Shown one piece after another: positions 2,527 to 3,221 of a DNA stretch of 5,452 nucleotides. The position numbers and the translations under genes are program-made. Origin of the DNA: Escherichia coli (GTDB taxonomy: Bacteria > Pseudomonadota > Gammaproteobacteria > Enterobacterales > Enterobacteriaceae); the NCBI RefSeq assembly GCF_003334255.1, contig NZ_QOWU01000104.1. One strand, 5' to 3'. A model generated the notes under the pieces. That model was given only the letters and a program-made list of their open reading frames with translations, searched no databases and was not told where the DNA came from. Numbering within the stretch: position 1 is the first letter of the stretch; every line of letters begins with the position of its first letter.

Positions 2527-3199
2527 AAAGAGGGAATTTACAATGAACAGAAAAGAAGGTAAATCACATTTCGCTCATTCAGTTAATATTTTCGAATAAT
2601 TTCCTGAACATGCCAGACTTGATGAGAACAGCAGAACAGCCCCTTTCTCCGGGGAACTCTTTACTACATAATTTATAGTCCTGTCGAAGATGTAAGCTCT
2701 TTCATCTGGATATCTCCATCAACAACATTCCAGTAGAGCACACGAGAGCGACAGGGGACTGGCGTTATTTATTACGGTATGCTTGTCTGATTTGGTAGAA
2801 AATAAAAATGGGCGACTGACCAGATATGGGAGTCTCCGGTCAGTCATTCGCTTGTAGATGCAGGACATAAGCGAACCAGGGCCCACTGCTTGTGCGCAAA
2901 AGCAAGGAGAGTTTACCCTGGCAGATTGAGTTACACCAGATCATCACCTCACTGACCAGTCAGAAATTCCGACTCATCTTCCACCACTAAACCTGCTCCA
3001 TCCCAGTCCTGAACCTTCCCTCGCCAGCAGCCAGGATCGTACGGTTCACCACCATCCTCTTCCGTGAATGGCCGTAAGTGAGCAGAACCAAAATAAATCG
3101 GTACTTCCAATAACAGATAGTGAAAGCGTAAGGTGAAATATGAACATGAGAATGGAAGCAGATACATGACTTCAGGACGACTTTTTCAGAAAACGAGCT

Positions 3200-3221
3200 A
3201 AGGGCGTTGGCTGACGCCCTT
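3200..3221 (-). terminator. Candidate intrinsic terminator downstream of the YagK/YfjJ-like gene
   Basis: Inverted repeat AAGGGCGT (3200-3207) / ACGCCCTT (3214-3221) with a 6-nt loop. On the minus strand it is followed by AGCTCGTTTTCTGAAAAAG, a short interrupted U-tract. It lies 34 bp past the stop codon at 3255-3257. Confidence 0.3.

Follow-up and report, generated by a model that had tools for sequence, protein, structure and literature searches.

The stem-loop at positions 3200-3221 of the 5,452-nt stretch of Escherichia coli DNA analyzed here (the window) probably represents the terminator, likely a weak one, or the 3' stabilizer of the adjacent minus-strand Gp2/YagK-YfjJ family gene, and the nine-codon open reading frame (mini-ORF) preceding it on the plus strand a chance chimera; we hold this joint reading with good confidence. 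The initial annotation of this region had described a Shine-Dalgarno (SD)-like motif, the start codon ATG at 3140, the peptide MNMRMEADT with its stop at 3167-3169 and the hairpin at 3200-3221, all of which were present exactly at these positions. The features referred to in the following are:

433-2481, minus strand: ireA (RefSeq annotation and BLAST).
2482-3254: spacer between ireA and the Gp2-family gene, 773 nt.
3129-3136, plus strand: SD-like motif TAAGGTGA, probably a chance match, in the variable segment on the cargo side.
3140-3169, plus strand: nine-codon ORF MNMRMEADT, chimeric across a mosaic junction at ~3153/3154 and probably a chance ORF.
3154-3254, minus strand: conserved flank on the 3' side of the Gp2/YagK-YfjJ family gene (its 3' UTR), which follows this gene also in islands whose cargo is unrelated.
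3187-3198, minus strand: tail after the stem, GCUCGUUUUCUG, an interrupted U-tract.
3199-3222, minus strand: terminator-like stem-loop of nine perfect pairs with a 6-nt loop, UAAGGGCGU CAGCCA ACGCCCUUA.
3255-3926, minus strand: Gp2/YagK-YfjJ family gene with a TAA stop at 3255-3257; the ORF continues to a TTG at 3977.

The window is a fragment of a pathogenicity island of extraintestinal-pathogenic E. coli. According to RefSeq annotation and BLAST it contains ireA, the spacer, the Gp2/YagK-YfjJ family gene and IS100, in that order, and it matches E. coli plasmids of ~82-100 kb with 100% identity and chromosomal islands of CFT073, APEC O1 and others with 99.1%. ireA and the Gp2-family gene are the sole genes annotated by RefSeq in the identical or 99% identical copies. 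Inverted repeats of 78 nt, 96% complementary to each other, are located at both ends of the window (166-243 and 5375-5452). On an identical plasmid, IS3-family copies in opposite orientation occur on either side of ireA-Gp2-IS100, so that the ireA module there lies in a composite-transposon-like arrangement. Within the spacer, an inverted repeat at 2811-2842 (GACTGACC...GGTCAGTC, 8 bp with a 16-nt loop), followed by GCCCATTTTTATTTTCT on the minus strand, is terminator-like on that strand and sits midway between ireA and the Gp2-family gene without an obvious gene to terminate. The best Fur-box matches in the window, with 15 and 14 of 19 positions agreeing with GATAATGATAATCATTATC, were located at 2502-2526, that is, 21-45 nt upstream of the ireA start, a position in agreement with the direct regulation of ireA by Fur in CFT073 (PMC7157518). 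From the position of these Fur boxes it further appears that the ireA promoter can do without most of the 773-nt spacer. Literature searches on yagK/yfjJ, on loci of the CFT073 ireA region and on the ireA promoter yielded no transcript-end or small-RNA data for the spacer.

The product of the Gp2-family gene matched the Pfam family YagK_YfjJ_C (E 5.7e-34) and, more weakly, REP_ORF2-G2P (E 5.8e-7). Among the PHROGs it matched a family of unknown function and, weakly, replication-initiation families (E 2.5e-5 to 9e-4), and no family for the protein was found in NCBIfam. CFT073 has the gene intact (C_RS24445). Homology of the window gene to intact copies stops at 3926, and positions 3927-3977 match the end of IS100, by which the first ~22 codons are replaced. 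The window copy therefore lacks its own 5' end and promoter, and the annotated 'YagK/YfjJ domain-containing protein' is, given the IS100 junction at 3926/3927, a fusion or truncation; a terminator of this gene may thus be idle in the window. A contig search for distant relatives with the Gp2-family protein yielded just two loci, too few for a proper covariation test across distant homologs, and K-12 yagK and yfjJ were used instead. A Gp2-family gene with its flank was also found on the contig JAEYLX010000008.1 (L013), which is labelled as a 'Bacillota bacterium' MAG; the encoded protein shares 91% identity with the E. coli protein used as query, and the contig is probably a mis-binned enterobacterial one.

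Read on the plus strand, the hairpin consists of AAGGGCGT/TGGCTG/ACGCCCTT at 3200-3221, to which T3199 and A3222 add a ninth pair. Five of the nine pairs are G-C, and its energy on the minus strand amounts to -13.2 kcal/mol. In the minimum free energy fold the stem is lengthened by an outer GAGCUU/AGCUC helix pairing 3231-3236 with 3194-3199. The window contains perfect 8-bp stems with loops of 3-8 nt at two sites, in four overlapping registers, compared to 0.55 +/- 0.88 registers in 300 dinucleotide-preserving shuffles that were counted in the same way; only 1% of the shuffles matched the observed count, indicating that the hairpin is non-random. Each of the two perfect hairpins closely follows a gene on the minus strand, ireA or the Gp2-family gene, at 16-32 nt past the stop codon. 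The only other one, at 395-417 (ACCTGAGGC-TCACG-GCCTCAGGT), is found 16 nt past the ireA stop (433-435, minus strand) and probably serves this gene as terminator. An Rfam search of the whole window at E <= 1 gave no match in the mini-ORF and hairpin region on either strand; at this threshold the search returned only a chance snoRNA-like match inside ireA.

With respect to the Gp2-family gene, the hairpin is located on the minus strand 32 nt past the TAA stop codon. A terminator scan, which found 2 sites versus 1.6 expected by chance, flagged the hairpin on the minus strand only. Its tail, GCUCGUUUUC, has five T in the 8-base window beginning 2 nt after the stem and barely passes the simple scan. 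The U-tract begins 5 nt after the perfect stem; formation of the outer GAGCUU/AGCUC helix would be required to bring it flush with the stem. In K-12, both yagK and yfjJ, for which no DNA similarity to the window Gp2 gene was detectable, possess a canonical G+C-rich hairpin with a T-run directly after the stop. The position and orientation of the hairpin and the terminators of yagK and yfjJ make an intrinsic terminator or a 3'-end stem-loop belonging to the Gp2-family gene the best and, as judged from the sequence, the most likely reading of the hairpin. The explanation already favored by the initial annotation, a terminator of the minus-strand YagK-like gene, is upheld by this evidence as regards position and orientation; we infer that a transcript would end there. 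According to this model, the nascent minus-strand RNA would fold into the 9-bp G+C-rich stem, possibly lengthened by the GAGCU/AGCUC outer helix, and would be released at GUUUUCUG after the stem. The hairpin would then serve as an intrinsic terminator or 3'-end stabilizer of the Gp2-family gene, probably a weak one. A bidirectional terminator was considered and rejected, as the plus-strand side of the hairpin has no T-run (tail ACTGTGGCATAAGC).

The flank that carries the hairpin is widespread. A query of 171 nt (3090-3260) found a match in 1790 of 5426 complete E. coli genomes, 664 of them over at least 80% of the query length. In sampled rows, the partial matches started at query positions 72-76, corresponding to 3161-3165 in the window. 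Eleven loci were inspected, and in all ten that bear the flank, the conserved stretch of ~90-100 nt directly followed the 3' end of a Gp2-family gene. Locus L010, the eleventh, matched the query in its left part only; the match adjoins ireA, and no Gp2-family gene is present. A dispersed, REP-like repeat was rejected based on the copy number of 1-5 per genome (median 1) and on the constant position of the flank next to a Gp2-family gene in the ten loci. The cargo left of the flank is diverse and includes ireA, an acyltransferase, a hypothetical gene together with an HTH regulator, a restriction endonuclease, IS2 and IS100.

The homology between islands breaks within ~12 nt of 3154-3165 for IS2, IS100 and four different cargoes. 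By alignment, the homology junction of the window was placed at GGAAGCAGAT, ~3153/3154, which is inside the mini-ORF: the SD-like motif, the start and the first four and a half codons belong to the variable segment, the last codons and the stop to the conserved flank. The mini-ORF is thus chimeric. In addition, 12 nt (AAAATACCGTTG) that are present in most relatives are missing between 3164 and 3165 in the window/CFT073 lineage. The mini-ORF therefore exists because a cargo-side segment was joined to the gene flank and 12 nt were lost in this lineage; it is probably not functional and would have arisen solely from these events. At a position equivalent to ~3161-3165 of the window, IS2 in L009 (~2490-2501) and IS100 in L011 (~2420-2501) abut the Gp2 flank, in both cases within a few nucleotides of the 12-nt deletion of the window lineage and of the cargo homology break. 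The region ~3161-3165 may be a hot spot of insertion or recombination, or this may be coincidence.

The mini-ORF itself, ATG AAC ATG AGA ATG GAA GCA GAT ACA TGA, starts at 3140 and is preceded by a motif whose duplex with the anti-SD at the 16S 3' end has an energy of -4.8 kcal/mol, which ranks 27th among the 213 ATGs in the window. An equal or stronger SD was found for 28 ATGs in the window versus 30.2 +/- 5.2 expected from shuffles, and the combination of SD and ATG is accordingly at chance level. Of the arrangement highlighted by the initial annotation, only the hairpin exceeds chance in the shuffles; the initiation signal does not. A consensus scan, which may miss weak or non-sigma-70 promoters, found no sigma-70-like site on the plus strand in 2400-4100. 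On the opposite strand, a 72-aa ORF (2949-3167, WP_000281066.1), which begins antisense to the mini-ORF stop, is annotated as 'hypothetical protein' in some RefSeq genomes. This ORF is frameshifted in L007 and cut to 62 aa in L006, and it matched no NCBIfam or PHROG family; it was rejected as a real gene and is probably not one.

The conservation of the mini-ORF was determined with a 55-nt query in complete E. coli genomes, with the numbers of the different forms derived from identity bands. The region was found in 674 genomes versus 1790 with the flank and occurred in three forms. The window type (154 records) encodes MNMRMEADT with the SD GTAAGGTGA. In the AR_0055 type (~398 records; L006), 12 extra nt result in MNMRMEADKNTVS, and the mini-ORF is lengthened to 13 codons by this indel. 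In the APEC O2-211 type (~122 records; L007), the peptide is that of the window/CFT073 type and the SD is altered to GTCAGAGA and thereby destroyed. The mini-ORF is absent in L004, L005, L008 and L012, all with other cargo, which are four of the seven inspected lineages that keep sequence left of the flank. The alignment of the spacer across islands thus found no conservation of the mini-ORF, a result that the initial annotation had named in advance as evidence against a leader arrangement. Together with the SD at chance level and the junction inside the ORF, this poor conservation agrees with its preference for a relic or coincidence.

Variation of the hairpin among relatives bears directly on its function. 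Among 13 copies no double compensatory changes were observed. A single stem mismatch occurs in L007 and L009; L006 and L013 have a weaker stem, a deletion has shortened it in L012, and half of it is deleted in L005. The Gp2-family ORF remains intact in L005, L006 and L012 despite the eroded hairpin. Stem changes compatible with G-U pairing were seen once on the minus strand (L011) and once on the plus strand (L006). In eight of nine informative comparisons the identity of the flank to the window was equal to or lower than the identity at four-fold degenerate sites in the neighboring gene, indicating that the flank evolves approximately neutrally and that selection is weak at best. Its wide distribution therefore reflects linkage and recent ancestry, with no demonstrable selection. 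The loop at 3208-3213 (plus strand) reads TGGCTG in the window, CFT073 (L001) and L002, and is its exact reverse complement, CAGCCA, in L006-L009, L012 and L014 with the same stems; L004 and L011 have a shorter variant in the CAGCCA orientation. From the sequences compared, the loop difference (four clustered changes) is one palindrome inversion, the signature of a template-switch 'loop flip'.

A flank at or above neutral divergence, damage to the hairpin by mismatch, shortening or half deletion in six of the ten distinct lineages compared without compensatory change, and the imperfect U-tract would all be in line with a neutral palindrome, i.e., a relic passed on together with the Gp2-family gene, which would neither terminate nor stabilize RNA. 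We consider this unlikely, while still giving it some weight: a perfect 9-bp G+C-rich stem is hardly expected by chance, its position, orientation and T-rich tail match those of a terminator, and the paralogs as well as ireA have hairpins at the same relative place. Far less probable is a role of flank and hairpin as the cis-acting target, for example an origin or nick site, of the neighboring Rep-like Gp2/YagK-YfjJ protein. The weak similarity of this protein to rolling-circle replication initiators (Pfam REP_ORF2-G2P and PHROG families) and the joint spread of flank and gene among islands point in this direction; however, no constraint was detectable on the flank, the hairpin is half deleted or weakened beside intact genes, the loop is inverted between lineages, and at this position the K-12 paralogs have canonical terminators that are unrelated and share no motif. 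It is just as improbable that the ~90-nt flank, which accompanies the YagK/YfjJ gene in about one third of complete E. coli genomes, acts as a cognate cis site and joining point of cargo and backbone.

Even lower in probability are the two readings that give the mini-ORF a function. In a plus-strand leader peptide with attenuator, translation of MNMRMEADT would control the hairpin and hence read-through. While the SD-like motif, the ATG and a hairpin starting 30 nt past the mini-ORF stop are indeed all present, a plus-strand gene downstream of the mini-ORF is missing, as the initial annotation had rightly stated: none of the identical or 99% identical copies in RefSeq has one annotated, and the plus strand there contains only the antisense of the Gp2-family gene and IS100. 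Alternative pairings, which it had suggested to look for by RNA structure prediction, did not emerge: in the plus-strand ensemble the hairpin pairs have probabilities of 0.96-1.0, and the best competitor for any base of the 5' arm, including an anti-terminator, stays below 0.001. The lack of a plus-strand U-run and of an upstream sigma-70-like promoter in the scan, the chance level of the SD and the position of the ORF astride a recombination junction also argue against an attenuator, as do the absence of the ORF in L004, L005, L008 and L012, the loss of the SD in L007 and the altered length in L006. An independent nine-residue micropeptide is equally hard to credit. The same peptide occurs in two island types, window/CFT073 and APEC O2-211, but the identity among carriers reflects recent common DNA ancestry, and the SD is destroyed in the latter type; in the AR_0055 type the C-terminus is changed and longer, and the four lineages with other cargo (L004, L005, L008 and L012) have no such ORF at all. 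Furthermore, the initiation signal does not rise above background (27/213; 28 versus 30.2), and the scan found no promoter.

The preferred reading, a terminator-like hairpin of the Gp2-family gene next to a chance ORF, removes a false lead, as no leader peptide, attenuator or micropeptide appears to be present, and it makes the hairpin an ordinary element, namely the terminator-like stem-loop at the 3' end of a cryptic gene of the island. In annotation, genes should be called neither for the nine-codon ORF nor for the 72-aa minus-strand ORF that overlaps it, and the copy of the Gp2-family gene in the window is to be regarded as truncated at its 5' end by IS100.

trpL, hisL, pheL and pyrL are leader-peptide transcription attenuators. 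Like these, the region has a stable hairpin that is preceded on its own strand by a short ORF bearing an SD-like motif. Unlike in the attenuators, there is no downstream gene, no U-run and no anti-terminator alternative, and the mini-ORF has no regulatory codon runs, is not conserved and spans a mosaic junction. The likeness to trpL/hisL attenuators is superficial and fails at every defining feature for which a clear result was obtained. Rolling-circle Rep proteins of the filamentous-phage gpII type have hairpin-containing origins or nick sites, and the window resembles these in that a non-coding hairpin adjoins a gene with weak Rep/G2P similarity; it differs in that no constraint was detected on the flank, the hairpin is dispensable beside an intact gene and the paralogs share no motif. 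Compared to Rho-independent terminators of enterobacterial genes, the window has an interrupted U-tract (GCUCGUUUUCUG) that is set at a distance from the perfect stem, and relatives of the hairpin show no compensatory variation. The perfect 9-bp stem with its 6-nt loop and an energy of about -13 kcal/mol, the T-rich tail and the co-directional gene are all as in such terminators, and the hairpins of ireA, K-12 yagK and yfjJ are located at the same relative place.
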